Source: Euglena gracilis (Eukaryota). Taken from it: DNA of 64,000 nt. Position numbers and translations under genes: made by a program. A model generated the notes under the pieces. It was given only the letters and a program-made list of their open reading frames with translations. It had not been told where the DNA came from and made no database searches. This document shows positions 3,001 to 28,484 of the stretch, piece by piece. Location of the stretch: assembly GCA_039621445.1 (NCBI GenBank), contig CP154954.1:20508642-20572641 (forward strand), given 5' to 3'. The stretch's first letter is position 1. The number at the start of each line of letters is the position of its first letter.

Positions 3001-4149
3001 GGTAGAACCCCTTTGGAAACCTCCCAACTCAACCCAATTGTCGACTTCGCAACCTGGGGGGGGGTGAAGAAGCCCCCTCAGCCCCCCCCCCACCGTGCCT
3101 AGTCTCCTTTGAAAGGCAGTCTCCAGCAAACTCAAAATGGGAAGATGGCTCTTTGGTATACACCATGATCAGAATTTCCAGGTGAGAGGATGGGCTGAAC
3201 GCCATGGGCTGTAAAAAATCGACAAAATGGAAAAGACAACAGGAACGGTGTCAACAAAAAGGACACAAAATGGGAAATGTGTGCAGTGGTTGCAGGGGGA
3301 CATTCTAGGATTAGCATTGATCATGCCGAACAAACAGGAAATAACAAATGGACACCCTTTGCATGGCCAACACCAATTGTCTTCCCGAATCCCATCAACT
3401 ACAGTGTAAAGAAATGGGAAGCATTCCCTTAGAGACTCGTTAGGTCACGACCTTCACCCATCACAAGCGGTAGGGGGGTCCCACGGGACCCCTCCACCCA
3501 TGCCTGGGCTCCAGCGAACAACTCACATTTTTTGAGGGGCAAGGATAAATTTTTGACTTATCACTTGTTTTTGCAACGTTCTTTTTCCTTCTCCCCTCTT
3601 CTTCGTTTCATCGCATCAAGCATTGCAGAAAAGCCTCTTCAAAAAAAAGGACACCAAGCCACTTGGTGGGGACGCGGGGGGGACGCGGGGGGGGGGGGGG
3701 GACGCGGGGGGGAGGCGGGGGCTCAACCCCCATTTAGTCCTAATTCATGTGACTTTTCTTCTTCTGAGTGTCTATTTTTTTTGGTCGCATTCACCATGTT
3801 TTGAAAGCCCCTGGAGGGGTTCAAGTGTGGAGAAGCTGGAAATGCTGTTGCCACTGGCCGCAGGTACTATATCCGTGGACTGAGGCCCAAGACACACACT
3901 GTGTCTCGTGGACTGAGTCCACGAGACACAGTGTGTGTCCCCGTGGACTGGGACACACACTGTGTCTCGTGGACTGAAAAATAAAAGGTGTTTGCCAGAA
4001 ATGCGAGGTGTTCTACATCTAATGCAATGCAGCAGGGCAGTGGAAAGATGGTCACCGGACAACCGTGAGCTGTAACAGCTGAGAGACAGTTGGCGCGAAT
4101 TTGGAACAATAGTCGTCGGGACACGGAACGGCATAACAGACAACGAGGA

Positions 4150-4829
4150 GACGTAACGAGTAACCCAGCGTTACGCCTTACTGACCAACACAGAGCCGAC
4201 GTCATGAGGCGGTTCAGTTGCGGAAACTGTTTTTTGGAAGATGGAACCAGAATGCCGTCCGGGTCAACAGATGTGAACACCCGTGCGAGAGAGTTGAAAT
4301 GACCTCGGACAGTAGAAGGCAGGTATGTCTCGAATTTGAATGTGGTGCCACACTGTGCCCGGCGTTGTTGCTCAGCTTGATTGATGAGGGTAGCCTCATC
4401 AAACAAATATCTGGGGTCAATGACCCAACCAGCCCATGCGGAAAAAAAGCCATCCAGGTCCTCATACTGAGCGTTCAGATGTTTACACGCCTGCTGGAAC
4501 TCCAACAGGCGTGTAACAGCTACACGCTCAGCCTTTGCGGTCCATTTTGGGTTCTCTTCCAACACGTTGGCCAACAACGTACCGTGTATTGTGTCAAGAA
4601 CTGTGTTTGGGCCAAGAGTTAGGGGGAGCCCAGGGGCGGGGACCGCGGCGCCGAAGGCGCCGCGGTCGCCCCTGGGCCCCCCTAAAACCTTGGCCCAAAA
4701 CACTGTTCTGGGTCAACAGCAGCGCCCTTCTGCAAATCGACCAAATACTTTTCCAGTGTAGCAACAAATTCATCTGGTTTCGGGGGTCGGGGGAGCATGC
4801 GGTCCACACTGTTTGCGGTCTTCTTCATT
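4150..4829 (-). pseudogene. Truncated tyrosine-recombinase-like ORF (N-terminal/core-binding part), split by a 111-bp hairpin insertion
   Basis: MKKTANSVDRMLPRPPKPDEF...LDGFFSAWAGWVIDPRYLF...STVRGHFNSLARVF...VPSSKKQFPQLNRLM aligns by eye with ORFs 21429-22352 and 26316-27113. 3' boundary approximate. Confidence 0.7.
4598..4708. mobile_element. 111-bp palindromic mini-insertion with an 8-bp TSD-like flank
   Basis: GAACTGTGTTTGGGCCAAG...CTTGGCCCAAAACACTGTTC with tip GGCGCC-GAA-GGCGCC. Flanks TGTGTCAA (4590-4597) and TGGGTCAA (4709-4716). Confidence 0.7.
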
Positions 4830-7038
4830 TTCCGAAAGAAAAAACTGCAAGGACAGATAGTGGAATGTGGTAAAACTTGTCCACGAGAAACCTTTATGCT
4901 CTGAGCCAAGTTATTGGGGGGCACTTGTTGGTCGGACCAGTGGGAATTCTTGATTTTTTCAGTTCACGAGGACACACACTGTGTCTCGTGGACTGGCAGT
5001 CCACGAGACACAGTGTGTGTCTTCGTGAACTGAAAATTTGACAAAAAATCGCAAAAAAATACGGGGTAGACATTGCGTGGCTAAGTTCCACGAGACACAG
5101 TGTGTGTCTTGGGCCTCTTAGTCAACGGATATAGACAAAAATCGTCCATTGTAACCCGGACACACCGTGTACCCGGGTTATGGGCGCCTTCGGCGCCCAT
5201 AACCCGGACACACGGTGTGTCCGGGTGACATGGACGATTTTTGTGTAGTGGCCGGTGCTGGTATTGCTTTGCGCCTGAAAAGGCCTTGCTTCTGTTTTCT
5301 GGGCGCAAAGGCCCCCTATCCAAGTTGTTTGGTGAAGCATTCAAGTTTGGGTGAAGCCGAAGAAGTTCAAGCAATAACTGAAGTTCAAGAACTATCAAGT
5401 TCTTGGTGAACTTCACCGGTGAAGTTCACCGATGGGTTAGGCAGAGGTGGGGGGCCCGGGACCCCCCGGTGAACTTTCAAACGGTGAACTTCACCATAGG
5501 GGGGGGGGAGGGGGGTCAAAATGACCAAAGTCTACTGCCTGATCCCCTGAGGAGTAAGTAGACAGACCCCTTGTCAGTCCTGTACCCTCGTATTGCTGCT
5601 CGTCCAGAAGGCAAACCTGTGGGGCAGGTTTCATCAAACAACCACCTCCCCCTGTGGGGTAAGCACACCAACGTTTGCCACAGCCTTCGTACGGCTTCAC
5701 CACAACACTGCGCACGGTCGGTGGAAAAACAAAAGCTCTGTCGTTCCACCCAGAAGAACTCTTCGGAAAACGCCCGAGGCACCGCAGCCCCTGCCCCTTT
5801 TCAAAGACAAGGCACGGAGGTGTTGGGGACGCGGGGGGGACGCGGGGGGGGACGCGGGGGGGGACGCGGGGGCACCACCATTCTAGGGACCATGATCAAA
5901 GCTGACGTTTTTTTTAAAAAAAAATTACTTTGTTTAAAAAAACCAACAAAAAAGTTTTTTTTAAAAAAAATGGAAAGTGTGTTTTTTAAAAGAAGTTTTA
6001 CAACGCAAAAGTCTTGTCCTCTAAAAAAAAGGCTCCAAAAACCGGTGCGTTTCCACACCCAAAATGGAGTTTTGTCAAAAATGGCCCGACATTCATCCCA
6101 AAAAATGTGATGGTCGATAAGAATATCCTACAAAATTCCCTTTCAAAAAAATTCTTTGGAGGCTAGGCGCGCCACTGGGGGGGGGGTCCGGGACCCCCCT
6201 CCCCCCCCCCCCCCGCGGCCCCTCGGACCCCCCCCCTCCCCACTGTGCCTAGCATAGCCAAGAAAAAGGCATTTTTTTTGAGCAAAAATGGCCCAAAAAT
6301 GGCCAAAAATGACCATTTTTTGGACCCGAAAATGGGCCGCGCACCGCCCGGCGGCCCTCCCCCCCCCTCAGCGGTGTCGGAACAATTTTTTCCCGGGGGG
6401 GGGGGGGGGCGAGGAACCGACAAAATTTGGAGCACATCCTTTTTTCCCGGCGCGAAGGAAGCGCCGAGGAAAATTTTTTTCATGGCACAACCAAAATGTA
6501 CTTTTTTCTGTCTCCCTGGCCCCGAAGGGGCCGAGACGCTAACGCCTTTTTTGAAGTCCAATGCTCCAAAAACTTGAGCTAGAAAGCGAAATCATGGGTA
6601 GAACCCCTTTGGAAACCTCCCAACTCAACCCAATTGTCGACTTCGCAACCTGCGGGGGGGGGGGTGAAGAAGCCCCCTCAGCCCCCCCCCCACCGTGCCT
6701 AGTCTCCTTTGAAAGGCAGTCTCTAGCAAACTCAAAATGGGAAGATGGCTCTTTGGTATACACCATGATCAGAATTTCCAGGTGAGAGGATGGGCTGAAC
6801 GCCATGGGCTGTAAAAAATCGACAAAATGGAAAAGACAACAGGAGATGGGAACGGTGTCAACAAAAAGGACACAAAATGGGAAATGTGTGCAGTGGTTGC
6901 AGGGGGACATTCTAGGATTAGCATTGATCATGCCGAACAAATAGGAAATAACAAATGGACACCCTTTGCATGGCCAACACCAATTGTCTTCCCGAATCCC
7001 ATCAACTACAGTGTAAAGAAATGGGAAGCATTCCCTTA

Positions 7039-7467: not shown

Positions 7468-9319
7468 TTAGAAGACTCGTTAGGTCACGACCTTCACCCA
7501 TCACAAGCGGTAGGGGGGTCCCACGGGACCCCTCCACCCATGCCTGGGCTCCAGCGAACAACTCACATTTTTTGAGGGGCAAGGATAAAATTTTTGACTT
7601 ATCACTTGTTTTTGCAACGTTCTTTTTCCTTCTCCCCTCTTCTTCGTTTCATCGCATCAAGCATTGCAGAAAAGCCTCTTCAAAAAAAAGGACACCAAGC
7701 CACTTGGTGGGGACGCGGGGGGGACGCGGGGGGGGACGCGGGGGGGACGCGGGGGCTCAACCCCCATTTAGTCCTAATTCATGACTTTTCTTCTTCTGGG
7801 TGTCTATTTTTTTTTGGTCGCATTCACCATGTTTTGAAAGCCCCTGGAGGGGTTCAGACCTGGAAGGGGTTCAGTGTGAGAAAGTGTGGAAGCTTGGAAA
7901 TGCTGTTGTTGCCCACTGGCCGCAGGGGGACTGGTACTGTGGCCGGTGCTGGTATTGCTGCTTTGCGCCTGAAAAGGCCTTGCTTCTGTTTTCTTTCCTG
8001 GGCGCAAAGGCCCCCCTATATTCAAGTTGTTTGGTGAAGCATTCAAGTTTGGGTGAAGCCGAAGAAGTTCAAGCAATAACTGAAGTTCAAGAACTCAAGT
8101 TCTTGGTGAACTTCACCGGTGAAGTTCAACCCGATGGGTTAGGCAGAGGTGGGGGGCCCCCGGGACCCCCCGGTGAACTTTCAAACGGTGAACTTCACCA
8201 TAGGGGGGGGAGGGGGTCAAAATGACCAAAGTCTACTGCCTGATCCCCTGAGGAGTAAGTGGACAGACCCCTTGTCAGTCCTGTACCCTCGTATTGCTGC
8301 TCGTCCAGGAGGCAAACCTGTGGGGCAGGTTTCATCAAACAACCACCTCCCCCTGTGGGGTAAGCACACCAACGTTTGCCACAGCCTTCGTACGGCTTCA
8401 CCACAACACTGCGCACGGTCGGTGGAAAAACAAACGCTCTGTCGTTCCACCCAGAAGAACTCTTCGGAAAACGCCCGAGGCACCGCAGCCCCTGCCCCTT
8501 TTCAAAGACAAGGCACGGAGGACAGCAGGGTCACGCAGAAAAGGAAGACGCTACAAGGCCCAGGCGATACCTCCGCTCGACACGACAAAAGGTCTCGGAA
8601 GCCCATGGGGGGCATTTGGCCCGACCAACCTAGCCGGCTGGCAGACCAACCTAGCCGGCTGGCAGACCAACCTAGCCAGCCAACATGCCGGCTGTCCAGA
8701 TGTTTGTCCAGATGAAAGCCACTATCGCTAGCCGCCCGGCTATCCAGACCAAACAATACGTACGCGCGCTGTGTACGTATTGTGCTAGGGGGACTAAGTT
8801 CGTCGGGGCCAAACTTCGCCCGGGTGAATGTTCGGACCTTAGGAGCTCCGGACAAAAAGATGCCTGCCGGAGGCACCCCCCCCCCCGTAGTGGAGAAGCG
8901 GACCACGACCGGCGCGAGCATTCGGTGATGTGTCCTGACCGTCCCCCCAGTCACGCAGGGTTCCCCCGGGAAAAAAGGTGCAGAACATTAACTCGCAGGT
9001 GTGTTACATTTTCTGCAGAAGCCTGATTTGATCATTTACCCAAGGTGCGCCCAAGGCGTCGCAAAAAAAACCTAAATAAATCCAGCCTGAAAAGCAAAAG
9101 GATTTGTTTCAAGGGGGCATAACCCAAAAAAAATACAAATAATAATACAGGGGGTGGCGTGCAGACCAGCAGATCGCACTTACAATGCAAAACCCCAACG
9201 GCAGGTTGGTACACCCCTCCCCCCCCCCTCTCCGAGTGCCTCGCCACGTAGCCGGACCCCCTCCCCACCGGGATTTTCGCGATTTTTTGAGATTTTCGCG
9301 ATTTTTTGAGGGAAAATTT

Positions 9320-9410: not shown

Positions 9411-9442
9411 CATAATACATGGCGGACAATTGAAAGCCCCTG

Positions 9443-12400
9443 GTGGGGTCAAGTATCCAAGTTAAGAGTTCAATTGCCATTGAGAGTCACCCACAAGTCC
9501 TGCTGGTGCAGGCAGAAGCAGTCCTGAAGTCCTGCTGGTGCAGGCAGAAGCAGCCTTGCAGTCCTGGTGGTGCAGGCAGAGGAACTCCTGGTGGTGCAAC
9601 ACAAGAAGTCCTGCTGGTGCAGGCAGAAGCTGGTACTGGTGTACTGCTGCAGCTGGACATGCTGTCGTCAGTGGCATACTGGGCTGCTCAGCCCTGGTGG
9701 CAACTTATGGGCCTGCAAAGGCCCCCTCATCTGGGCCTGCAAAGGCCCCCTCATCTGGGCCTGCAAAGGCCCCCCCATCTGGGCCTGCAAAGGCCCCCTC
9801 ATCTGGGCCTGCAAAGGCCCCCCCATCTGGGCCTGCAAAGGCCCCTCATCATGGGCCTGCAAAGGCCCCCCATCTGCCAACCATTAAGTGCCACTTTCAG
9901 CTCCAGTGTCTTCCTTTCTGTGTTATGCATTGCATCCCAAACTTCATTTTGCAGCAGTTTTGACTTGACATTGAAAAACATTCTGCCACCCCAACCCCTC
10001 AGTGACACATTTTGCAGCAGTTTTGACTTGACAGTGAAAAACATTGTGCCACCCCAACCCCTCAGTGACACATTTTGCAGCAGTTTTGACTTGACAGTGA
10101 AAAACATTGTGCCACCCCAACCCCTCATTGACACCGTTTTACCCCATACTGCAAAGTCACTGGGCCTGCAAAGGCCCCCCTGTGACACCATTTTGGTCTG
10201 TTGCACCATTTTGCCCCAGTGGCCTGCAAAGGCCCTGGGCCTGCAAAGGCCCCCCTCCAACACCATTTTGCTCCAGTGGCCTGTAAAGGCCCTGGGCCTG
10301 CAAAGGCCCCCCTGTGACACCTTTTTGTCCTTCTTCCTTTTGTGTGCACTTGCTCACCTGACAATGGAAAAACTTCTGCACTCATTTCAAGTTGCAGCAT
10401 CCACACCCCCACCCACCAACCCACCAGGCACCCAAAACCCCCATGGTCCCAAGCTGGTTCTGCTGACATGGAGCCCCAAAACTGTCAGATACTGTTCCCC
10501 TGTTTCCCCAAAACCCACTCTGCAGTTTTCGGAACCAAAAAGTGCCCTGCAAACCCGTGGTTCCATTTTGCTCAAAACTGCCAGGCCCAATTTGCTGAAA
10601 GCCGCCAAAGCGACACAGAAAGTCAAAGCCTCTGTTTCCCCAAAGCTGCCAGGCACACTTTTAACCCCGGAGCCCCAAACCCCCATTTCCTGCAGACCTC
10701 CGGAACTGGAGTTTCAAAGGGAAAGGGATAGCTGGCCCAAACGCATGCCCACCAAGAAGCGCCAAAACCCCAGTACTTGCACCGGTCACCACCGTCGCTT
10801 GGGGCGCGGGGAAGGAATTTTGTCCTGTGGTGACATTCAGCCAAACCCAGGCCCCGCAGTACCCCCACAGACTGAAATTGACTTCAGCGAGGACCCGGCA
10901 AGGGCTGTCGGCTTCTTGATGGCAACTGCCTCGGTCCCACCCACCCTTGCCCCACTCTTGGAAACCTCTTCGCAAGATGGCCGGAATTTACAACAGCTCC
11001 TTCTGGACCTCATTGGGGGTGACCCAGCTCAGAGCGAACAACCTTTGAACTCTGCCTCGGCCCCATTGCCACACAGCGTCGCAATGAACATTGATGCCGC
11101 ATCCCACCCCCTCTCAGGACCATGCCCTGACCTTCATCCAACTTGGGAAGAAATTGCCCACGATCGCCGTGGGTCAATCAGCCTTATCCCTCGCGGGGCC
11201 ATCCAAGCAGTGGCCGAAGTCTATTGCACACTCTTGCGCCGCCTGAACGAACAAAGCACCTGGGAAGCCATGCACGCCCTTTGGTGCTTCCCAAAGGCAG
11301 TGCTGGCACCCTTTGGCCGTGGTGGGCGCGGTCACTGGGCACGGCTTGGCCGCATCCTGCAGGCTCGTTCACGACAATACCTAAACCGCCCGACGCTTGA
11401 GAGTTGGAAGGACACTTCTCCTCCAGTGGAAGCAACTAACGCACGAAAGAGACCACGTACTAGACTGGCTGCCTCGAAAGAGGAAGAAGTAACAAAAGAG
11501 GATTTTGTCTCCAGACTAGAACGACTGGTCGGCAGGGGTGCTGTATCCAAAGCGTGCAACCTGTTGACTTCCGATGGTGTTCAAGATCCCGACAACCCCT
11601 TGGTACGTGAACGCCTCCGGCAATTGCATCCACATGAACCGCCTCCTGGACTTGGCCCAACGACCATGAGACGTTCGCTACCAGCTGCCACTTCTGAGGA
11701 AGACATGCAACAACGCCGGACAATAGTGCGAAAGGCAGTCTTCAGCTTTGGCCCAGAATCTTCCCCAGGCCCCTCTGGCTTGAGGCCCGACCACCTTCGG
11801 TGTTTGATGGGGCATGATGCAGGTTGCCACGCAGATGACCTTTTGGACGAACTCACGACCTTCTGTTATCGCACCATTGACAATGGTTTGCCAAAAGGAC
11901 CTGCGGCAATCATGGCAGCAGCCAGACTGACAGCTTTGCGAAAAGTGAAAGCAGCCAAAAACACCGATGATTTCGGCAACCAATGCCCACCTGCTCCAGA
12001 AGAAGAGGGAACCAGGCCCATAGCAGCGGGCGAATGCCTACGTCGGCTGGTAGGAAAAGTGATCATGAGACAGGAGGTGGTGAGAACAGCAGTTCGCAAC
12101 AGTCTGCCTGGACAATTTGGTGTTGGCCATTCTGATCCCTGTTCCATTGTGGCCATTGGACTTCAGCAGCTTGTCGGCTGTCTCCATCACACAGGTGCTC
12201 AGGATTGGGGTGTGTTGCAATTGGACTTTGCAAATGCCTTCAACTGCCTGCGCCGTGAGGGTATGCTGGACGCTGTTCGAGAACGTTGCCCTGAAATGAC
12301 AGCATGGATGGAGAGCTGCTACAGTGAGCATTCCACTTTGTACTGTGGGTCAACCTCCTTTCGCAGCAAAAGTGGTGTGCAACAAGGTGACCCATGTGGT

Positions 12401-14082
12401 CCTGCGGCGTTCGCAATTGCAGTTCAAAATCTTGTTGAAAAAGTGGGTGAGCTGGTCGGATGGCAAGCATGGTACTTGGATGATGCCCATCTCGTGGGTA
12501 CCCCAGCACAACTGGAGACAGCAGTCCGATACATTTTGCGAGAAGGACCCCTCATTGGGGTTTCCCTGAATATATCCAAGTGTCGATTGTGGGGACCTGC
12601 CTTTGGAATGGAGTGGTCCAGCCTCCCAACCAACACAACCCCGCTCCAACAAATTCCGGTGCAGGAATATTCTGAAGCAAGTGGCCTCAAGGTCCTTGGA
12701 CTGCCAGTCTGCCACCCAGCAGGGGGGGCGTTCGCCTCCACTGTTTGGGCTCCACGAGTCGAAATGGTTCTGAAGGCATGCAATCTCCTACAGCTTGTGC
12801 CAAGTGCCCATGTCCAGTACACCCTTCTGCGTCAATGTTTGGATGCATGTCGCGTCAATGACCTACTGAGGGGAACACCACTGCCGCTTGCTGGGGACCA
12901 ATGCTTATTGCTGAGCCACTGTTTACGAAACACGCTGAGTTGCATCATGACAGGACCAGTTGATGACAACCAGTGGTCACAGGCCACCTTGCCACCCCGT
13001 TTGGGGGGACTAGGAATTAAGGATCCGCAGGAATGCCGACTCGCTGCACGGTGGTCAGCCCAACTGGACTTCCTCCAAAGGGCAGTAAACGTTGTTGGGA
13101 CTTCCGGACTTCGTAATCCGCAATATGAAACCACCAGATTTTGACTCCGCACTGACATTGCTGAAGATCGTTGGTGTTGAAGGTCAACCCCTGCAGGCCT
13201 TAACAGATGACTCCACCCGTGCCACCCAACTACCACGAGAAATGGTGTCACAGAAACACTGGGGGAACGTCTGCTCAATGCTGCGCCAAAAGAAACTGCA
13301 AAACTCCCTGTCCGGATCCGATGCCATCCGATTTTCCTGCCAAACAAGGCCTCATGCCATGGCCTGGACGTGTGCAGTCCCCTCTGCTGGCACAAAAACC
13401 CTTGTTCCCACGAAAGAATTTGTTGCCCTCCTCCAATGGACGCTTGGCGCTCCTGTGGTAAAAACAGAAGAGAGCCACTCTCCCGCATGTCCACGATGCA
13501 TGAGCCCACTTGACACAGCCGGCCACCACCTCGTCTGCTGCCACCGTAACAACCTCGTTCGGCGGCACGGGGCAGTGCAAAGCTTTGTCCTGAACCTGGC
13601 ACAGCGAGCTGGCTTTCCTGCACGTCGAGAAGAAAAAGCTGAGGACGGAACTCGACCGGGCGATGTTTTCATCACTCGATTTGACGCAAATGGACCCGCA
13701 GCCATTGATGTCACAGTCAGACACCCACTAGCACCCTCCAGGTCACCTCCAGCTCAGGTGGACAATTGGCACACTCGACAGGAAGAAGACAAAATTGCCA
13801 AGTATGGGGACCCTTGCAAGCGACGAGGCTGGACATTTATCCCACTGGTGATGGACTGCTACGGTGGCATGAGTGAAGCAGGCCAAGGATTCGTCTCCAC
13901 ATGCATCCGCCTCCAAACAAGCCAACATAACGGCTGGGAGAGAGGGGGGTGTGGAGGCCAGTGCATGGCAGGGACTTGGAATGGCTTTGATGCGCGAGTT
14001 GGCAAGACAACTGGCATGGGGACAGTGCCCTGAGCAACTACTTGATTGCAATAGCGGTGGTACGCATTCCCCATACTTTTGA
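9443..14082 (+). pseudogene. Retrotransposon polyprotein (reverse transcriptase / restriction-like endonuclease), two frameshifts
   Basis: Three overlapping ORFs (9443-13144, 13092-14033, 13873-14082) give a continuous RT-ZnK-REL protein. The C-terminus matches the copy at 29005-29187. Confidence 0.85.
9708..9873 (+). repeat. 24-bp tandem repeat (CTGGGCCTGCAAAGGCCCCCTCAT), ~7 copies
   Basis: Seen directly; encodes LGLQRPPH repeats. Further dispersed copies at 10160-10315. Confidence 0.9.
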
Positions 14083-16839: not shown

Positions 16840-18235
16840 TCCAGATGAATGCTCACAACACTGGTGGCAACAGGAACTCACCAAATCCTCAATTGACAAT
16901 TTGCTCGCCAAACTGCCCCCCAGGGATCAAGCCCGTTTGCTGGGGGTGTTCCCCCCGCACCCCCCTGCCCCCCCCCCCCCGCGTCCCCCCTGCGTCCCGG
17001 ATTTTGGCCGGGTACATTTTTTTGGTCGACTAAAGGAAAAGTACACACAAATTTTGTTGACGCCAAAGAAAACGAGTGGGGCCAGTTGGGCAATTCCCCC
17101 GCCCCCCGCGTCCCCCCCCCGCGCAGTGGTTTCGGTCACGGTTGGATGGCATCCCCTCCCAACTTCGCGAACCACTGCATAATCAAACCAGTTGACTACT
17201 GCCTGGGCCCGAAATGGTGGCTGGGCTTGCAAATATCCCCGACTTCACCTGATGCACTTTGTGAAGGCTGCCAAAGTGCGGTGGATCCGTTCGGGGATCA
17301 CTGGATGTGCTGCATCCGGAACAACTTCTCTCTGCGCCACAACGCCGTACAGGACGCTCTTTTCACACTTTTGTCCAACACCGGCCAAGGGGTACAGAGG
17401 GAGGTCCCAGTTCCAAATCAACCCGATGGCAGTCTACGCCCTCCTGACCTGTTGTTGGCCAGTTGGCAAGATGGTCAACCAACAGCAGTCGACATTACAA
17501 TTTGCCATTGCTTGCAAGCTTCAGAAAGAACAGCATCGAGAGAGCTTTGGCGCATATTCCTAAAGAGAAAAGAGACCAGCAAGCGCCTCAAGGAGGTTAG
17601 GCAGGGGTGGGGGGGGGCTGTGGACCCCCCCCGGTGAAGTTCACCGGTGAACGTTCACCGGGGGGGAGGGGGGGGTACTTTCGGCGGTGAAGTTCACCGG
17701 TGAAGTTCACCGGTGAACTTCACCGTTTTGATGGTTGGGGGTGAAATTTTCATGGGTAAAATTTTGCTCCTTTCCTCTCAAAATGGTCATTTTGAGGTTG
17801 ATGCTTCATGGAATTTTATCGAAATTTCCGAAAACTTGCCTGAAATGCCATTTTTTGGCCATTTTTGGCCAAAAAAAAGTGCTCTCTTGGTGAACTTCAC
17901 CGGTGAAGTTCACCGATGGGTTAGGCAGAGGGGGGGGGAGGGGTCCGGGACCCCCCGGTGAACTTTCAAACGGTGAACTTCACCATAGGGGGGGGGGAGG
18001 GGGGTCAAAACGACCAAAGTCCACTGCCTGATCTCCCAAGTAACGGCCCGTGCAAAGCAGGAGGCTGGACTTTCACCATGTTGGCATTCGGAACCTGGGG
18101 AGGCGGCCTGGGTCCGGAGACGTCCAAACTGCTCGGTAGGATCATCAAACGAGCAGCTGCATGGCATGACGGTGAACAGCGAACGACGCGTCACGCCAAA
18201 CTCTACCAGAGCATATCCCTAGCCCTCGCCCGAGG
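16840..18235 (+). pseudogene. Degenerate CRE-like retroelement 3' fragment (Zn knuckle + REL), interrupted by MITEs
   Basis: SQHWWQ.., CEGC..GDHWMCC, RHNAVQD, RPPDLL, AVDITICH, GWTF..LAFGTWGG motifs in ORFs 16688-17182, 17086-17637 and 17958-18455. Confidence 0.8.
17592..18036. mobile_element. MITE (GGAGGTTAGGCAG TIR family), 3-bp TSD CAA
   Basis: TIR GGAGGTTAGGCAG/CTGCCTGATCTCC, CAA on both sides, internal 24-bp palindromes GTGAACTTCACCGGTGAAGTTCAC. Confidence 0.85.
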
Positions 18236-19310: not shown

Positions 19311-21312
19311 AAACCAACAAAATCACAGTGCACCAGATTACCATTTTGGACAGACAATTTAAGATCCTAGTCACAACAATCACAGCAGAATCAGAAAATA
19401 CACGCATTGTCTCGGATGGCTGCAATAAAAACAAAATGGAGCAGTTTTGCAGGGACATGCTCAGGTCCAGATTATCAATTCCAATGGCTCATCATCATGT
19501 CCTCCAATGATCTCATTCCCAAGCATATAATTCAACAACTGTGAGACCTGAAGCAGAGAAAAATGAAAATTCTCTGACAGAATTGTTTGGCAAACCTTTG
19601 TCATGGGGAGCTTGGCAATACAAATCCAACACAAAGTCTTCACCAGTACACTTTCTTTCGCATCTGCAGCAGGCTGTCCACAAAGTATGAAGCCAATGGC
19701 TTTCCCAATAACGTCAGATAACACAAGTTCGAACTGTTCATGAAGTTGAACTCCACTGCCACTCTTTCAATCCTCCAGATGCCTTCTGCACATCATCCCA
19801 GTGAACAATAATTGCAACAAACATTTGTGGCAACAATTGAATTGAACCTCCGTCTCCTTGAGGACCTGCAATGAGCGTTTCCGGGCCACCCGCCCGCTTG
19901 TCCGACATGTTCATGAGAGAAAAACGGACGCTCAGAAGGAACGGCCGCTTGGGTATTTCCTAGTAGGATTCTCCTATTTTTTCAGTGAAAATATTGAAAT
20001 TTTTGAAAATTTTGAAATTTTCTGAAAAAATAAAAAATCTTGAAATTTGCCCAGTCTTGTGCGGCAGGGAAGGAGTGAGGGCAAAACCCCGCAACGGTGG
20101 TTCTTGCCGCGGTAAGTGTCTCCATCTCTCCGTTGTTGCTTCTCGTTTTGCTGCGTGCTGCTCCCCGCGGCTGGTGCTGATGTCATCGACTTGTTTGCTC
20201 GCCTGGCGTTCTGGTTGGCTTATCTTCTTTCTTCTGGCCTTTTGCTTTTACCATGTGGCATGCTTTGGTCGTAGCAGCTGCCAAACTTGACTCACCTCAA
20301 TGCCAAAATTTTAAAGAAAGTGGCTTATAAAGAAAATTTCTGCCGAGCGAAGGCAATTTTATGCAAAAAATCAGAAATTGGCCATTCTTGTCACGAATCT
20401 CTTAGGTATGGCAGTTTTTGAAACCACCCATCCGGATAGTTTTTCTCATTCGTAACCTAAATAAGAAGCGTTGAGATGCTAATTTGCCAAATTTGAGGCA
20501 TGTGGAGCCTTTTGTGGCCCTCATTGGTGCCAGTTTATGACATTTTATGGACATAGAGGTGACATAGAGGTAGAGGGGGGTCGGCACACCCCTCCCCCCC
20601 CCTCACCAACCCCCTCGCCACGCCATTTTACCCCCCCCCCCCCTTTTTAGACCCCCTCGCCACGCCATGTCAGGCCCGCCAAAGAAAATTTTCTTGGCAA
20701 ACCCCCGCGCACCCCTCCCCCCCCCATCCGGGACACCCTCGCCACGCCAAACCCCCCCCCCCCTAGCCGGATACCTCGCCACGGCGTGCCGACCCCCCAG
20801 AGGTAGAGGTAGACGTGGGTCAGATAGAGGTAGAGGACTTTGACCTCTACCTCTACCTCTATCCAGCCCTGACTCAGCACGTACCGAGCACACACAGCAC
20901 GCACCGCTGTACATGTTGTACATAGAACGGAGGTTAGGCAGGGGTGGGGGGGGGCCTGTGGACCCCCCCCCCCGGTGAAGTTCACCGGTGAAACTTCACC
21001 GGGGGGGGGGGGAGGGGGGGGGTACTTTCGGCGGTGAAGTTCACCGGTGAAGTTCACCGGTGAACTTCACCGTTTTGATGGTTGGGGGTGAAATTTTCAT
21101 GGGTAAAATTTTGCTCCTTTCCTCTCAAAATGGTCATTTTGAGGTTGATGCTTCATGTAATTTTATCGAAATTTCCGAAAACTTGCCCAAAATGTCATTT
21201 TTTGGCCATTTTTGGCCAAAAAGTGCTCTCTTGGTGAACTTCACCGGTGAAGTTCACCGATGGGTTAGGCAGAGGGGGGGGGGAGGGGGTCCGGGACCCC
21301 CCGGTGAACTTT

Positions 21313-22706
21313 AAAACCGTTAACCGTTCACGGGCTTCCCCACGTGAGGAAACGGGGTGCGTTCACGGGTGCGCACTACGGCACCCGTGAACGGACCCCG
21401 TTTTCACATATGCGCACCCGTGGTCGGTTCACGGGTGCACGCACGGCAGCCGTGGACGGAATTTTGCCTTTAAAAAAGGGAAAATATTTATGCAGTAGGG
21501 AAGAGGATTTGAAACAAATGGCGAACGGGCAAGGTCTCCGGGCAAGTTTTTCATTGTGCCCACGACGATGCTGTACGATTTTCGCCCGTCCATAATTTGC
21601 GGCTTGAAACTTTCGACCACCAACCGACGAAGAACCTCCCCTCGGTATCCGGTGGTGTACCCCAACAAAAGTACATTCCTCCTTTGGACCCAAAATGGTG
21701 TGTTCCCTTCGGCAGCCTTCAAAACTGTGAGCAACTCGTCCGCCTGCAAAACTGTGTTTGTCAACCCACCCTTGGCCTCCATTGCCTTTTTGGCCCTTTC
21801 GTGCGTGACGAGTGGCTTCATTAACGCATTGAACTGCGGGAACTGGGACACAGACGATGGTACAATGATGGCATAAACGGGAGCCAATGCCTTGTAAATG
21901 TTGCTTACAGCATTTACATAGGTCCGAAAACTGGACACTGGCATGGAGCGAAGGCGCCCATCTTTTCCTGCCTTCTCCTGCCTTGTCTGGACCCAGGCAT
22001 CGGCTTCCTGCTGCGTCTTGAAAAGTTCACGAGCATCAACGCACCATCTGGCCCATCCCACCAAAACTTCGTCCAAAGAGCCAAAAACAATGCCATGCCG
22101 GTTGCAAACATCCATATACTCCAAAAAACACTTTACTGCGGCATGGTTCTTGGGGCCCAAGTCACAATTTTGACCACCGGTGGGGAGACTGCCTAAAAGG
22201 GCATCCACTGCAGCAGCTCCTAGGGAGCCGGCACCACGTAAAACAGCCAGAAATTCATCTACGTTGGGGGGGCGGGGCATCTGTGCTTCCATCATGTTGG
22301 CAAAACGCTTCATCGGACTGTGGGGAAAAGCAGCAGACAGACAGAAACACAAATTTTAAAAACCCCAAAAAATTCAAATTCCGATCACGGGTAACACCTT
22401 GCGCAACCGTGGTCGGTTCACGGGTGCACGCACGGCAGCCGTGGACGGAAATTCCGTTCACGGGTGCGCACTACGGCACCCGTGAACGGCCAAAGTTCAC
22501 CCGTGAACGCCAAAAACGAGATTTTTGACCCCCTAGGCATCTCGTTAGGAAGCGCTTGCCTACTGCGAGGAAGCCCGTGAACTTGGTTAACGGTTTTAAG
22601 ACAAAAGCGGGGTCCGATCACGATTCCCGGTGGAGAAACGGGGGGCGCCTACGGCGCCCCCCGTTTCTCCACCGGGAATCGTGATCGGACCCCGCTTTTT
22701 CTTATA
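21313..22706 (-). mobile_element. Hairpin-ended tyrosine-recombinase-family element, copy 2
   Basis: Inserted at GAACTTT^CAAACGG of the MITE without TSD. The left end is inverted at 22569-22599, followed by a terminal hairpin ~22598-22704 with tip GGCGCC-TAC-GGCGCC. Confidence 0.88.
21520..22313 (-). pseudogene. Tyrosine recombinase (phage-integrase-like), C-terminally truncated
   Basis: SSFRTYVNAVSNIYK (core-binding helix), then VLQADELLTVL..QRRNVLLLGYTTGYRGEVLRRL (box I Arg), then YSIVVGTMK (Lys). No HxxR or catalytic Tyr box before the ORF runs into terminal repeats. Confidence 0.78.
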
Positions 22707-23639
22707 CAAACGGTGAACCTCACCATAGGGGGGGGGGAGGGGGGGTCAAAATGACCAAAGTCCACTGCCTGATCTCCAACGCCCCACGGAGTCTCTCAAG
22801 GACAACAATCGACAAATTTTGCACAGGGAAAAAATTGGGGGTAGGGGTCCTTGAGCCCCCCCCCCCAATTGAATTGGCTGATTGGGGGTCTGAAGGAGCC
22901 CATTAGCCAAATAGGGGGGGGGGGTGAGGGTAATGTGCCAGGGAGGGGGGGGCGCGTGTGTTGTGCTTTCTTTCCGTTGGATGGCGTGTGTGTGTCGGGA
23001 CCTAAGGGCTGTTTTGCTCCATGTATTCATATGGGTTTCGGTTAATTTTCATCTTTGGTCGCGAACAGATGGCTACACTGACGTTGGTGGCAAGGTTCCC
23101 GTTTTTTTTTGTTTTACAACAAAGCAAAAAAACTTTCATGAGTAAAAAAACGGTTTAAAAACGGTTTTTTGTTTTAAAAAAGGGTGTTTTTTTAAAATAA
23201 AACACTACAAATAGGAAAAACCTGTTTTAAACAACTTGTTTAAAAACAGCCCGGGAACCTTGGGTGGCATATCAAGGAGAGGACATGGGGGACAGGGTGG
23301 TTGGTACGCCATGGCGAGGGGGTCCGAATAGGGGGGGGGGGGGGGGAAAATGGCGTGGCGAGGGGGGCGGCGACCAAGGGGGGGGGGGCGGGGTGTCCCC
23401 TGGTATCCAACAAAATTTTCGTTCAAAAAATCACGAAAATCCCCGGCGGCGTGACGAGGGGGTCCGGCTAGGGGGGGGGGGGGTAAATGGCATGGCGAGG
23501 CCCTCGGAGGGGGGGGGGAGGGGTGTACCAACCCCCCACGGGAGTGTGAAGCGGGTATGGTTCATGTGGAGGGGGTGGGTTAACCAAGGTCGACAGGTGT
23601 TTACTGGGAATACGGGAGGTGGCAACCGGCAGATAGGTC

Positions 23640-23805: not shown

Positions 23806-24197
23806 GTGAAGTTCACCGTTTGAAAGTTCACCGGGGGGTCCCGGACCGCCCCCCCCCCCCTCTGCCTAACCCATCGGTGAATTTCACCGGTGAAGTTCAC
23901 CAAGAGAGCACTTTTTGACCAAAAATGGCCAAAAATGACATTTTTGGGCAAGTTTTCGGAAGTTTCGATTTAATTACATGAAGCATCAACCTCAAAATGA
24001 CCATTTTGAGAGGGAAGGAGCAAAATTTCACCCATGAAAATTTCACCCCCAACCATCAAAACAGTGAATTTCACCGGTGAACTTCACCGGTGAACTTCAC
24101 TACCGAAAGTACCCCCCCCCCGGTGAACGTTCACCGGTGAAGTTCACCGGGGGGTCCACCCCCCCCCCCCCCCCCCCCCCCGTACTGCCTAACCTCC
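23806..24197 (-). mobile_element. Partial reverse copy of the GGAGGTTAGGCAG MITE
   Basis: Reverse complement of most of 17592-18036, ending CTGCCTAACCTCC. Confidence 0.8.
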
Positions 24198-25356
24198 GAG
24201 GACTTTGACCTCTACCTCTACCTCTATCCAGCCCTGACTCAGCACGTACCGAGCACACACAGCACGCACCGCTGTACATGTTGTACATAGAACGCCCCAT
24301 GGAGTCCCTCAAGGATGATGTGGAATGTACATTTCTAACCCGCCGGAGCACCATGTAACGTGACCCCCCCTATTTGTCCCCCCCCCTAATTGGCCAGAGC
24401 CCAGGTGGCCAATTAGGGGGGGGGGGGTTACTCATTTTCAAGGGAAAATGCCTTTATTGGGTGTTTACGGGGGTTCGCGGCTATGAAGGACGGGGTCCAG
24501 GTGGCCAATTAGGGGGGGGGGGTTAGGGGTAACCCCCCCCTAATTGTCCCCCCCCCTAATTGGCCAGAAGGGGGGTCCGGGCCGCCCGGAGGGCGGCCAA
24601 ATAGGGGGGGGGGTGTTGGTACATAAAAAGTGCACGCCGGTATATGTATGACCCCTGATCCGCGAAAAAAAAAATCGAAACAATAGTGGTGGTGGGGCAA
24701 ATGGTTCGAAACTGTTGAATCTGGTTAATTTTTCAGAAGATTTCACCTGTGCAGCACAGCCACCTCGGGAAAAGGTGTCCCCTGACCAACCCCCTGTCCC
24801 TTGTGCTGTGTCCCGACTGCCTATAAAACAGCAGAAATGTGGTTTTTGTGGTGTTCTCATTCCCAAAAATCCAAATTGTGTGGAGCTGAACAAAGTTGTC
24901 TGTGACGCCTGCGGTTTGGCATATCATTTTCATTGCCAACATTGCGGCGGCCACCAAAGTATGGCTCTTTTTTGTGTAAAGCGTGTCGTGTTCAGTGATG
25001 TCCGCCACTCTGTCTCGTTGTGCTCCAAGGCAACCTAGCCTTCTGTCGTGTTGTAGAGTGCCCCCGACCCGCCTCACTCGTTGAGGACCACCCGGCCTCG
25101 CAACCACCCGCCGATTTTTCATGACAGCGTTTTTTGCTTTTTACTCAGGGTTGCCACAGATGCCTTCATTGAAAACGTGCCTGAGCACAGATGCCTTAAT
25201 CGAAAACGTGTCATTGCCACAGATGCCCTCATTGAAAACGTGCCTAACCACAGATGGCTTCATTGAAAATGTGTCATTGCCACAGATGCCCTCATTGAAA
25301 ACGTGTTCATGACCACGAATTTCAGGGCAGGCATTTGGCGGGCTGAACACGTTTTT

Positions 25357-25830
25357 TACTACAAAAAAGAGGTGTCGGACGCCGGTTCTGTCCAAAGCCC
25401 GGCGTTCCAAACGCCGGTTCCGTCCGAAGGACGGAACCGGCGTTTGGAACGCCGGGCTTTGGACAGAACCGGCGTCCGACACCTCTTGTTTAAGCCGGCG
25501 TTTTAGAGACGCCGGGCTCAGGACAGAACCGGCGTCCCCACCCTTCGGCCAAAGGACACTCCCAGGACCAATCTCCGACCACTGATCTGCAATGTCACAC
25601 CACTTTGCACTTCACCAAATTCCGGCGATCGCGAGGGTATTTCTGGCTGTGTCAATCGTCCAGGTATAAAATCACCCCTCGATCGAAAGCTCTTTTCATC
25701 AGACGACTGGCGATCACCACCAAATTCAGCCACGTCGCCTGGAGCTCTTATTTTCTGTCAGTGGGGAATCCTAATTTCACAACTCTGGTGCCCCCCCAAG
25801 GCCCTCAGGTCGTTGATTCGAAGAGAAACA
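25357..25830 (+). mobile_element. Truncated hairpin-ended element (same family as 27551-28484)
   Basis: Perfect ~59-bp-arm hairpin with tip GTCC-GAA-GGAC, then sequence near-identical to 27657-27990. Confidence 0.8.
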
Positions 25831-26142: not shown

Positions 26143-26540
26143 GGGTGCCATCCTCGGCTTTCTCTTCACGACGTGCCGGGAAGCCAACTCGCAAGGCTCA
26201 GGACAAAGCTTTGTACCACCCCATGCCGTCGAGTAAGGTTGTTGCGGTGGCAGCAGAAGAGGTGGTGGCCAGCTGTGTCAAGCGCACTCCTACATCGTGG
26301 ACATCCAAGTCTCCCTCATCCGATTTTACTACAGGAGCACCCAGGGTCCATTGGAGAAGGGCACCAAACTCTTTGGTCGGAATGAGAGTTTTCACTCCTA
26401 TTGAAGGGCATGCACATGCCCAGGCCATTGCATGCGGCCTTGTTTGGCAAGCAAACCGAACGGCGTCGGCTCCGGACAAGGATTGTTGCAGTTTCTTTTG
26501 GCACAAAACTGAGCAAATGTTTCCCCAATGTTTTTGTGAC
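26143..26540 (-). pseudogene. CRE-like retroelement fragment
   Basis: SQKHWGNICSVLCQKKLQQSLSGADAVRFACQTRPHAMAW is nearly identical to the main element. Confidence 0.85.
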
Positions 26541-27486
26541 GAGGAAACGGAGCTGCTGACCACAGGAGCGGAACGTTGCTCGGCGGTGGGAAACACAGAC
26601 GGAACATCGGTCAGGTCCTGATTTTCGACCGAGTGTTTTGCGGAATGCCCGAGCGACGGCATTCACGTATGTCTGAAAAGAGGTTGCCGAACGATTCCCT
26701 GAAACGAACAAAGTTCCCGACTGCTGCTCACGTTGAGCCACACATTGTTCAAAGACGCTCGCCTCATCGAACAACAGGCTGGGTTCCAGCTCCCATCCCG
26801 TCCAGGCAACAAAGAAAGCATCCAGCTCAGGATAAGAGGCTTGCCGATGTTGACACAGTTTGGCAAACTCCAAACAGTTGGCAACAGCAGCAAGCTCTGC
26901 ACCTACGGAGCCGGACTTTTTCTTTGTGTTGCCCTGTGCCAGCAAGGTGCCATGAAGGGGGTCAACCTTCGGCTTCTTGGCATCTTGCTGGTATACCGCG
27001 AGAGCAGCCAGGAACAGTTCCGTCCTAGGGGGAGGTGGTAAAAGACCATTCACAAAGTTAGCCGTGCGTTTCGCCATAGTGGGAGGGCTGCGGAAAAAGG
27101 GTGGGGGTGACACGTTTTCAATGAGGGCATCTGTGGCAATGACACGTTTTCAATGAAGGCATCTGTGGTTAGGCACGTTTTCAGTTTTCAATGAGGGCAT
27201 CTGTGGCAATGACACGTTTTCAATTAAGGCATCTGTGTTCAGGCACGTTTTCAATGAGGGCGCCGTTTGGGTCCGAATTTCACAAATTCGCGGTTTTGAC
27301 CCCTTGCGTGAATCATGACCACGAATTTCAGGGCAGGCATTTGGCGGGCTCTGAACACGTTTTTAAACAAATTGTGGCTGAGCCCAGATTTCAGCCTGAA
27401 AACGTGTTCAGGGGGCCCCCTTCGGGAACCCCCTGGCTGAACACGTTTTCAGGCTGAAATCTGGGCTCAGCCACAATTTGTGTATA
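26541..27486 (-). mobile_element. Hairpin-ended tyrosine-recombinase-family element, copy 3 (left end lost)
   Basis: ORF MAKRTANFVNGLLPPPP..DPLHGTLLA..LDAFFVAWTGW..TSFQTYVNAVARAF is homologous to copies 1 and 2. Terminal hairpin 27367-27482 with a CCC-TTC-GGG tip, ending GTATA. Confidence 0.8.
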
Positions 27487-27550
27487 GAAACCGTGTTTGG
27501 GCGAAGATTTACAACTTTTAACGTCTCGAAATCGGCCCAAACACGGTTTC

Positions 27551-28484
27551 TACTACAAAAAAGAGGTGGCGTTCCGGACGCCGGTTCCGTCCGAAGGACG
27601 GAACCGGCGTCCGGAACGCCAGGCTTTGGACAGAACCGGCGTCCGCCACCTCTTGTTTAAGCCGGCGTTTTAGAGACGCCGGGCTCAGGACAGAACCGGC
27701 GTCCCCAACCTTCGGCCAAAGGACACTCCCAGGACCAATCTCCGACCACTGATCTGCAATGTCACACCACTTTGCACTTCACCAAATTCCGGCGATCGCG
27801 AGGGTATTTCTGGCTGTGTCAATCGTCCAGGTATAAAATCACCCCTCGATCGAAAGCTCTTTTCATCAGACGACTGGCGATCACCACCAAATTCAGCCAC
27901 GTCGCCTGGAGCTATTTTCTGTCACTGGGGAATCCTAATTTCACAACTCTGGTGCCCCCCCAAGGCCCTCAGGTCGTTGATTCGAAGAGGAAAAACGTTT
28001 CTGTAGGGTTTATTCAGCATCTTAAAACAAAAGTCACTGAAGATTGCTACAAGTTTCGACTCAGATTCTGGCCGATCCGACCATCGCGAGCGTATCTCGG
28101 GCTGCGTGCAACGTTAGGGTACCAAGTTACCCCTCGATCGAAAGCTCTTTTCAACAGACGACCAGCGGTGCTCATCAGATCTTTCCACGCTGCACGGTAC
28201 TCTATTTCCAAATCTGGGCCGATTTTCACGAGATTTGGATATCCACCCTACTGGTCCCCAGATGGCAAAATTCATTGTCCTTGATGGTTGAAACACTCAT
28301 ACCAGCACCTTAGGGCCACTTTTGGGCACTTTTGGTGACATTTTTAGGAATGAAAATCGGACGCCGGGCTTTGGACAAAACCGGCGTTCCTAACGCCGGG
28401 CTTTAGGACAGAACCGGCGTCCGGAAAGCCCGTGGGGGGGGGACGCCGGTTCTGTCCTGAGCCCGGCGTCTCAAACGCCGGCTT
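27551..28484 (+). mobile_element. Hairpin-ended element, copy 4 (opposite orientation, no YR ORF)
   Basis: Hairpin ~27560-27656 (GTCC-GAA-GGAC tip). The adjacent segment 27659-27706 is the inverted copy of the far end 28438-28485. Confidence 0.8.

Follow-up and report, generated by a model that had tools for sequence, protein, structure and literature searches.

How might a tyrosine recombinase mobilise a DNA element that carries, just inside its right end, inverted copies of both of its own termini? The question is raised by a stretch of 64,000 nucleotides (nt) of the Euglena gracilis genome (assembly GCA_039621445.1, contig CP154954.1, positions 20,508,642-20,572,641 of the forward strand); we call this whole stretch the window and count all coordinates from its first base. 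The window has many repeats and a G+C content of about 52%, yielded no match when scanned for Rfam families and tRNAs, and has the character of a eukaryotic nuclear region. At least four families of elements, unrelated in sequence and represented by E1, E2, E3 and E4/F, share one plan in it: a left end (L) and, at the other side, an internal inverted copy of that end (L') directly abutting R', a 3-nt loop and the right end (R). We propose that these copies derive from a recombinase-only eukaryotic element, with a single gene for a two-domain Cre-like enzyme of about 400-600 amino acids (aa), whose ends would be joined on a folded single strand, and we put the probability of this reading at roughly one half. 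It builds on the mobility, borders, layout, protein fold and target motif described below, and adds a single-stranded substrate, a one-strand exchange and the absence of an RNA step, which we infer.

Exact empty sites define mobile elements with a shared layout

The copy E2 and its parts, together with a paralogous site that lacks the element, are as follows.

21313-22706, plus strand: E2, 1394 bp, with complete ends, internally deleted; borders set by five paralogous empty sites
21313-21352, plus strand: end L of E2, first bases AAA; pairs with 22556-22597, the minimum-free-energy (MFE) and centroid folds concurring
21360-21464, plus strand: left subterminal repeats of E2, a 35-nt palindromic unit and a 54-nt unit
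21429-22313, minus strand: E2 recombinase open reading frame (ORF), 294 aa, the N-terminal two thirds of the predicted recombinase; homology lost near 21531
22400-22489, plus strand: right subterminal repeats of E2
22556-22597, plus strand: L' of E2 (left internal complementary region); has 2 additional nt at a distance of 13 nt from the junction
22598-22706, plus strand: R'-loop-R terminal hairpin of E2, loop 22650-22652, final 3 nt ATA unpaired
17950-17985, plus strand: empty target site of E2, cut 17966/17967

The left subterminal units recur as direct copies at 22455-22489 (100% identity) and 22400-22453 (96%), and the motif GTTCACGGG is repeated within these subterminal repeats. A second complete element, E1, belongs to another family.

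3869-5247, plus strand: E1, 1379 bp, with complete ends; L 3869-3923, L' 5076-5132, hairpin 5133-5247, loop 5189-5191
4071-4891, minus strand: remnant of the E1 recombinase ORF, interrupted by a nested palindromic insertion at about 4596-4708
1670-1700, plus strand: empty target site of E1, cut 1684/1685

The sequences flanking E1 are contiguous at 1684/1685 (98.7% and 99.3% identity), and its empty sites comprise one close and one diverged copy. Those flanking E2 are contiguous at 17966/17967, 1914/1915, 5477/5478 and 8181/8182, and in one reversed copy near 23822. Because the flanks join to the base in these empty sites, the borders are exact, and mobility of the elements is thereby demonstrated. 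Comparison with the empty sites revealed no target duplication at either E1 or E2; insertion occurs directly after a T, and the elements open with A and close with TA. A first-pass annotation, made from the letters of the window alone, had described a mobile-element family with precisely this insertion behaviour, and the contiguous flanks bear out both statements.

The remaining copies are incomplete or lack the gene.

26541-27486, plus strand: E3, right part only; L' 27313-27364, hairpin 27365-27486, loop 27421-27423
26580-27080, minus strand: remnant of the E3 ORF
27108-27261, plus strand: 35-bp repeats of E3
27551-28484, minus strand: E4, with complete ends and without a recombinase ORF; R/R' 27551-27658, L' 27659-27715, L 28430-28484
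25357-25828, minus strand: F, 97% identical to E4 and comprising the R side of an E4-type copy; hairpin intact at 25363-25491, followed by L' from 25492
25151-25356, minus strand: E3c, a reversed E3-type copy represented by its L end and subterminal repeats; its first base adjoins the R end of F
24742-24936, plus strand: C-terminal ORF piece of E3c, rich in Cys and PHD-like, directed towards the L end of E3c; matched by tblastn with residues 415-486 of the relative P0084, E 6.6e-5

The same layout had been claimed for four elements. It applies to E1, E2 and E4, the last lying on the minus strand, and fails for E3, which has no L. The fragment reported at 25357 is present as F, and the L end of E3c adjoining it had gone unlisted. 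Positions 25307-25356 of E3c are 96% identical to L' of E3 (27313-27364) over 50 nt with one 2-nt gap, and 25151-25310 is an inverted copy of the E3 repeats at 27108-27261; a reading of E3 and the reversed L end at 25356 as two halves of a single inverted element was not supported. The left edge of E3 adjoins a copy of 13247-13651 that is inverted and 78% identical; 13247-13651 itself lies downstream of a reverse transcriptase ORF that is described further below. The longest frame of E4 has no Pfam match. The window has only derivatives, either internally deleted or without cargo, which would have to be moved in trans.

The target of E2 is a dispersed repeat rich in GGTGAAC/GTTCACC palindromes and in runs of G or C, with one occupied and five empty copies:

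1838-1981: copy of the E2-target repeat
5401-5544: copy of the E2-target repeat
8101-8245: copy of the E2-target repeat
17816-18036: copy of the E2-target repeat
21163-21312 with 22707-22777: copy of the E2-target repeat
23823-23969: copy of the E2-target repeat

Both ends pair with their internal copies in predicted single-strand folds

In E2, 36 of 43 aligned columns of L and L' pair, with a 31-nt core that is 93.5% identical, and the hairpin arms of R' and R (22603-22649 and 22653-22699) are 100% complementary over 47 nt around the 3-nt loop, with four further pairs beyond a bulged C and the last 3 nt unpaired. L and L' of E1 pair at 52 of 58 positions and are directly followed by a 115-nt hairpin (5133-5247; 50/54 paired, loop TTC). 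The corresponding count for E4 is 51 of 57, and its R arm is about 24 nt shorter than the intact 63-nt arms of F (25363-25491). BLAST comparison inside the window gave E-values of 2e-15 for L/L' of E1, 6e-36 for the E1 hairpin and 4e-16 for L/L' of E4, and the whole-element fold of E4 had a z of -12.2 against 20 shuffles. A chance origin of the layout is excluded.

When each complete element was folded in its entirety as single-stranded DNA, all three were predicted to pair L with L', to stack R':R directly on this duplex and to leave the 3' tail free (the last 3 nt in E1 and E2, the last 6 nt in E4); the MFE and centroid structures concur on end pairing in E1, E2 and E4. In the predicted folds, L'R' is continuous and holds the 5' end of L and the 3' end of R next to each other, in agreement with the dumbbell that had been envisaged in the first-pass annotation, both ends being juxtaposed on L'R'.

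Several details of the paired form recur across the families. L' contains 2 extra nt relative to L, 12-13 nt from the junction, in 4/4 families (E1, E2, E4 and the E3/E3c pair), a position that corresponds to the usual arm length of a recombinase site, 11-13 bp (PMC3212892). Each family has one flaw near the R'/R base: G/G in E1, a bulged C in E2, A/G in E3 and C/T in E4/F. R ends in an unpaired tail with the final bases TA in all of them. R' starts with AGACAA, AAGACAA, AAACAA and AAACAA, which upholds an earlier remark that the L'/R' junction is conserved; the overlap at this junction amounts to 3 bp in E2 and E3 and to 1 bp in E1; in E4/F, R has 6 unmatched nt at its end. Since such structural details are kept though the sequences are unrelated, they are what would be expected from pairing, or from recognition of the paired form, and not from two independent duplex binding sites. 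If circularised, L'R'-loop-R-L would make one long imperfect palindrome of about 190 nt, and the integrated form would be such a circle opened in one arm.

A long palindrome at one end, insertion without duplication beside a fixed base and the palindrome of about 190 nt that a circle would probably hold are also features of a hairpin-ended or rolling-hairpin replicon, in which R'/R would serve as a replicated telomere or fold-back primer with protelomerase-like resolution. Helentron/Helitron2 and IS200/IS605 elements likewise have a hairpin near one end and insert beside a fixed base without duplication, and the recombinase could be mere cargo of such an HUH or Helitron-like single-strand transposon. 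We regard both versions as very improbable. The unpaired 3' tail would block fold-back priming, and the best structural matches of the encoded protein, presented in the next section, are Cre, XerH, IntI and Tn1549 Int, with no telomere resolvase among the 50 matches listed. The enzymes of Helentron/Helitron2 and IS200/IS605 are HUH Rep proteins, in contrast to the Cre fold predicted here; no HUH Rep-helicase ORF or Pfam match was found in any window copy, and the recombinase family and the end layout co-occur in three families of unrelated sequence.

The ORFs are predicted to encode a Cre-like tyrosine recombinase

The ORFs of E1, E2 and E3 are all encoded on the minus strand, starting on the side of the hairpin and running into the element. 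Their homology, already supposed in the first-pass annotation, was confirmed by tblastn with 12 full-length relatives, which matched E1 (4891-4071), E2 (22313-21522) and E3 (27080-26580). For the E2 ORF, 145 cluster representatives match at E<=1e-3, 15 of them at E<=1e-30, and the closest is 91% identical. Full-length relatives measure about 400-600 aa; judged by alignment to them, the window ORFs are truncated remains of this protein family, as had been suspected in the first-pass annotation. Homology ends near residue 262 in E2 (about 21531), near 150 in E3 and near 170-240 in E1, where two tblastn pieces (4825-4709 and 4595-4212) meet at residues 40-41 of the relative P0012.

Sequencing runs carry the element abundantly: its words are very frequent, 17 of the 24 runs listed, which share one organism label, contain at least half of the sampled words, and a leaf-litter metatranscriptome contains 0.32 of them. 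The run data are assembled contigs of 60-450 nt over the repeat, from which circles, starts, strands, copy number and expression are not readable. Public-run contigs depart from E2 exactly at 21526 and 21532, and the consensus before 21532, read by eye, extends the ORF in frame, like the 91% relative; this divergence and in-frame continuation together mark E2 as an internal-deletion derivative. In addition, contigs of all three DNA runs examined join 21697 to 21805, so a subfamily with this 107-nt ORF deletion (21698-21804) is common in the organism. Run joints across E2 itself have short sides (21-26 nt) and may stem from paralogous empty sites.

Pfam matched none of the window ORFs, including the 294-aa ORF of E2. 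The model PF00589 scored below its cut-off in 6 of 23 relatives (best E 0.0028, colinear), as in P0016, where residues 151-339 align to profile positions 3-158 with 15.3 bits against a cut-off of 27.1; weak Pfam helix-turn-helix matches lie over the last helices of 10/23 members. A profile of the 23 members, run against the sequences of the PDB, found weak helix-turn-helix chains only and no recombinase. We employed AlphaFold2 to model the 491-aa relative P0006 on the 23-member alignment, with a mean predicted local distance difference test score (pLDDT) of 78 and 256 residues at 90 or above. Foldseek matched this model best to Cre variants (E 2.7e-9, probability 1.0). VIA-align paired it with Tre/Cre at Z 20.9 (292 aligned residues, root-mean-square deviation 3.4 Å, model residues 19-405), with further matches to XerA (Z 17.6), XerH (17.5), IntI (16.1), Tn1549 Int (15.6) and lambda Int (14.1); 98 PDB chains reached Z>=8, and type IB topoisomerases matched the catalytic half of the model. 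A structure search of a protein atlas with its own model returned the same families.

On the strength of the modelled structure, the protein family is a two-domain (core-binding and catalytic) Cre-like tyrosine recombinase, which is the identity that the first-pass annotation had assigned to the ORF. Doubt about this identity, raised by the weak helix-turn-helix matches, was removed by the structure searches. The relatives keep, in this order, R225 (G-x-R-x-E), K257 (M-K-N), D353-x-x-R356-R357, a variable H/N/S position and Y388-H389. No Pfam model detects this family of 145 representative clusters, which is therefore invisible to standard annotation. Scans of metagenome contigs and viral contigs for related DNA loci gave pattern matches and no confirmed relative. 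One of the 23 scanned members, P0084, has a PHD-type zinc finger (PF13831, E 3e-5) at its C-terminus; in some family members such a finger could tie the recombinase to chromatin.

Insertion sites resemble the left end

At three of the five readable junctions (E2, E3 and E4), the R end is followed, after one base, by AAACSGTG, a motif with only 11 matches in the window on both strands. The F junction has a near match, formed by the opening bases of E3c's own L, and the E1 junction has a looser likeness. The right flank resembles the element's own L start at every readable junction, and the left flanks end with ACT, ACTT or ACTTT; the target consensus is ACTT/xAAACSGTG (the slash marks the cut), with a right half that resembles the L arm. 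F lies exactly at the L end of E3c, head-to-tail next to the resident copy. At E2, the L start and the right flank form an imperfect direct repeat (9/14 positions), the 7 nt left of the cut agree with the last 7 nt of R at 3 positions, and no overlap sequence is common to both borders. A crossover within the AAAC common to L start and flank was considered as an explanation of the borders and rejected, as the adjacent bases contradict the predicted hybrids.

A 64-bp palindrome at 27487-27550 is similar at its ends to the insertion in E1. The R end of E3 sits exactly at one end of this palindrome and that of the reversed E4 exactly at the other, as though each arm served as a target half-site.

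The direct repeats at the E2 border would suit a Crypton-type cut-and-paste mechanism, in which a double-stranded circle exchanges both strands of its R-L junction with a target resembling the L start, and L'R' and the hairpin act as protein-binding or regulatory sites, or as a spare site, and never pair. Terminus and target are near-identical in an active Crypton of Chlamydomonas (PMC9977147), and terminal direct repeats of 4-6 bp are described for Cryptons (PMC3212892). As in CryptonF, S, A and I, the recombinase appears, as far as seen, to be the sole gene, the terminus is like the target, there is no true target duplication and deletion derivatives are abundant; head-to-tail insertion at a resident L end would fit any site-specific recombinase. 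We nevertheless consider this mechanism unlikely. It leaves unexplained the kept complementarity of L/L' and R/R' between families whose sequences differ completely, the 2-nt difference at the same position in all four of them and the 3-nt spacing of R' and R, and it sits poorly with the lack of an overlap sequence common to both borders of E2. Moreover, the available descriptions give Cryptons no inverted or long repeats (PMC3212892, PMC13465315), a 2026 summary listing short direct repeats only and noting that some families are undescribed (PMC13465315), whereas the elements here have L/L' pairs of 40-55 nt and a hairpin of about 110 nt. They are set apart from Cryptons by this end layout, not by a protein tree.

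The end design is shared with DIRS retrotransposons

Among eukaryotic elements that bear a tyrosine recombinase, DNA transposons (Cryptons, Starships) are plain-ended and retrotransposons (DIRS, Ngaro, PAT, VIPER) have elaborate repeats, which are thought to be needed to restore an incomplete RNA copy. Ngaro, PAT and VIPER differ from the present elements in having split direct repeats (A1 ... B1 A2 B2), as the internal end copies here are inverted. In DIRS1-like elements as described in the literature, the start is matched by a left internal complementary region and the end by a right one that follows it directly; the two overlap at a circular junction of 3 bp, to which the first and last trinucleotides are each roughly complementary, with a middle mismatch, and the target is not duplicated (PMC7192593, PMC3266345). 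L'R' reproduces this arrangement of left terminus, left and right internal complementary regions and right terminus (lTer ... lICR-rICR ... rTer), both ends being matched internally. Shared as well are the short L'/R' junction (3 bp in E2 and E3), near-equal start and end trinucleotides, the absence of target duplication, insertion next to resident copies and an encoded tyrosine recombinase; E2 and E3 fit the description to the letter, with start AAA, end ATA and junction TTT.

The view in the first-pass annotation that the combination is undescribed stands in one respect. A literature search, which did not extend to Repbase Reports, subscription journals and supplements, found no eukaryotic element that has a recombinase as its only gene together with either an internal complementary region or a terminal hairpin. 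The layout itself is not new, being the DIRS1-like design (PMC3266345, PMC7192593), and it is so far described only for DIRS retrotransposons.

The window copies might accordingly descend from a DIRS-type retroelement whose full-length copies carry gag, reverse transcriptase and RNase H, possibly on the opposite strand, and whose complementary region restores and joins the ends of single-stranded complementary DNA (cDNA), the copies seen here being mobilised in trans. Beyond the lTer ... lICR-rICR ... rTer layout, the missing target duplication and the 3-bp overlap in E2 and E3, all of which match the DIRS1-like description (PMC3266345, PMC7192593), three observations speak for such a descent: the deletions in all three copies with an ORF fall on the side that could have held further genes, the k-mer depth in the runs is very high, and the window contains a reverse transcriptase ORF, a fragment of that element adjoining E3.

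We judge it improbable all the same. Neither gag nor reverse transcriptase, RNase H or methyltransferase was found by Pfam or tblastn in any window copy, and no reverse transcriptase, RNase H or methyltransferase signal was found next to any of them. Fused relatives of greater length were not found either, the range of 861-2455 aa giving no match, which is weak evidence. The contigs that carry the eight members of one cluster measure 2755-3002 bp, and none among the matches listed is longer than 3002 bp; contigs with complete recombinase genes thus end at about 3.0 kb and leave no room for a reverse transcriptase. The size of about 1-3 kb contrasts with about 5-6 kb for DIRS1-like elements (5222-6196 bp among the five listed in PMC3266345). 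The complementary region lies upstream (5') of the recombinase ORF, and not 3' of the ORFs as in DIRS1; inverted terminal repeats are absent between the right complementary region and the end, a 3-nt loop taking their place; the subterminal repeats of E2 are direct and lie inside L'; and the empty sites lack the junction trinucleotide at the cut. Finally, E4 consists of unrelated filling between correct ends, as is usual for derivatives of DNA transposons. Taken together, the element seems not to encode a reverse transcriptase.

A recombinase-only element with a DIRS-type internal complementary region would show that this design is independent of reverse transcription, and it would bear on the origin of DIRS elements: the end design of DIRS retrotransposons could have been taken from such recombinase-only elements, or the borrowing could have gone the other way. 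It would also offer a compact system, of about 3 kb and one gene, for studying what the complementary region does.

The reverse transcriptase element of the window has left further traces; diverged pieces of its 3' region flank the E3/E4 cluster.

9434-13144, plus strand, with 13089-14033: open frame of 1236 aa; reverse transcriptase domain (RVT_1, E 5e-10), internal tandem duplications of 63-72 nt
26145-26540: piece of the 3' region of this element, inverted, 78% identity
28911-29168: piece of the 3' region of this element, direct, 85% identity

A folded strand as the proposed recombination substrate

For the recombinase-only element whose ends would be joined on a folded strand, we propose the following course. 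Inverted copies of both termini, L' then R', lie just inside the right end; on one strand, L would pair with L' and R with R', and both element ends would thereby come to lie side by side on a continuous template. The recombinase may bind this folded, imperfect duplex through two arms of about 12-13 bp, with the 2-nt L' bulge, the mismatch near the R'/R base and an unpaired tail of 1-6 nt ending in TA, L'R' holding the R-L junction and the tail forming a bulge. The enzyme would exchange one strand of the folded structure with a genomic site that resembles the L arm in its right half, and replication would then resolve the junction, as in integron attC sites, where the recombinase acts on a folded single strand (PMC3458562). 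Such a model would account for the exact borders, the absent target duplication and the lack of an overlap sequence shared by the borders, and also for head-to-tail insertion next to resident elements, as seen for F exactly at the L end of E3c.

The likeness to integrons extends to several details. An attC site, too, folds into an imperfect hairpin and has unpaired bases close to the crossover point, one-strand exchange would be expected to give exact borders and no duplication, and IntI is among the structural matches of the P0006 model (Z 16.1). A comparable case is the single-stranded phage CTX, whose folded attP is used by a bacterial recombinase. Both systems are bacterial, and the ends that must pair here are 1-3 kb apart; the likeness is one of working, not of membership. 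We advance only tentatively, as possible but rather doubtful in its entirety, the further claim that these elements form a eukaryotic transposon class in which a Cre-like recombinase acts on a folded single strand as integron integrases act on attC, with both ends paired onto an internal template, unpaired bases marking the site (a 2-nt bulge 12-13 bp from the crossover and a 3' tail), one-strand exchange with a target half-site followed by replication, and no reverse transcriptase. If the folded-strand reading is true, it would provide the first eukaryotic counterpart of integron-type single-strand recombination and a site-specific recombinase whose DNA substrate is structured.

The observation is robust; the mechanism is less settled, and a number of points weigh against it. 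The window holds deleted copies only, and no full-length copy with both ends was seen. The reverse transcriptase ORF at 9434-13144 might supply its product in trans, a copy-and-paste retroelement would likewise fit the very high abundance in the runs, and the internal complementary region of DIRS-1 has been experimentally linked to reverse-transcribed cDNA (PMC7192593). No circle or single-strand intermediate was observed, and the assembled contigs of the runs are unable to show one. On the side of the enzyme, the first His of the canonical motif is replaced by Asp (D353), and the catalytic residues were assigned by order and spacing and not by residue-level superposition. On the side of the DNA, the 3' tail differs among families (6 nt in E4/F, 1 nt in E1), which makes the junction rule non-uniform, and the target sites of E3 and E4, on two arms of one 64-bp palindrome, are not fully independent.

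Further features of the window

The recombinase ORF of E1 is split by a palindromic insertion of about 113 bp at 4596-4708, with the loop GAA. Near-identical 8-nt stretches flanking it look like a target duplication, which suggests a different, probably DDE-type, miniature element.

The segment 38001-40000 is unlike the rest of the window, with a G+C of 0.38, a GC skew of +0.35 and short tandem repeats of the TATG/CATG type.

The first 9 kb consist of repeated units of about 2.2 kb, as seen by comparing 1534-1834 with 3719-3868 plus 5248-5397, and also with 7753-8095. E1 lies inside one such unit and the neighbouring unit is 99% identical and empty, so the insertion of E1 is younger than the duplication.

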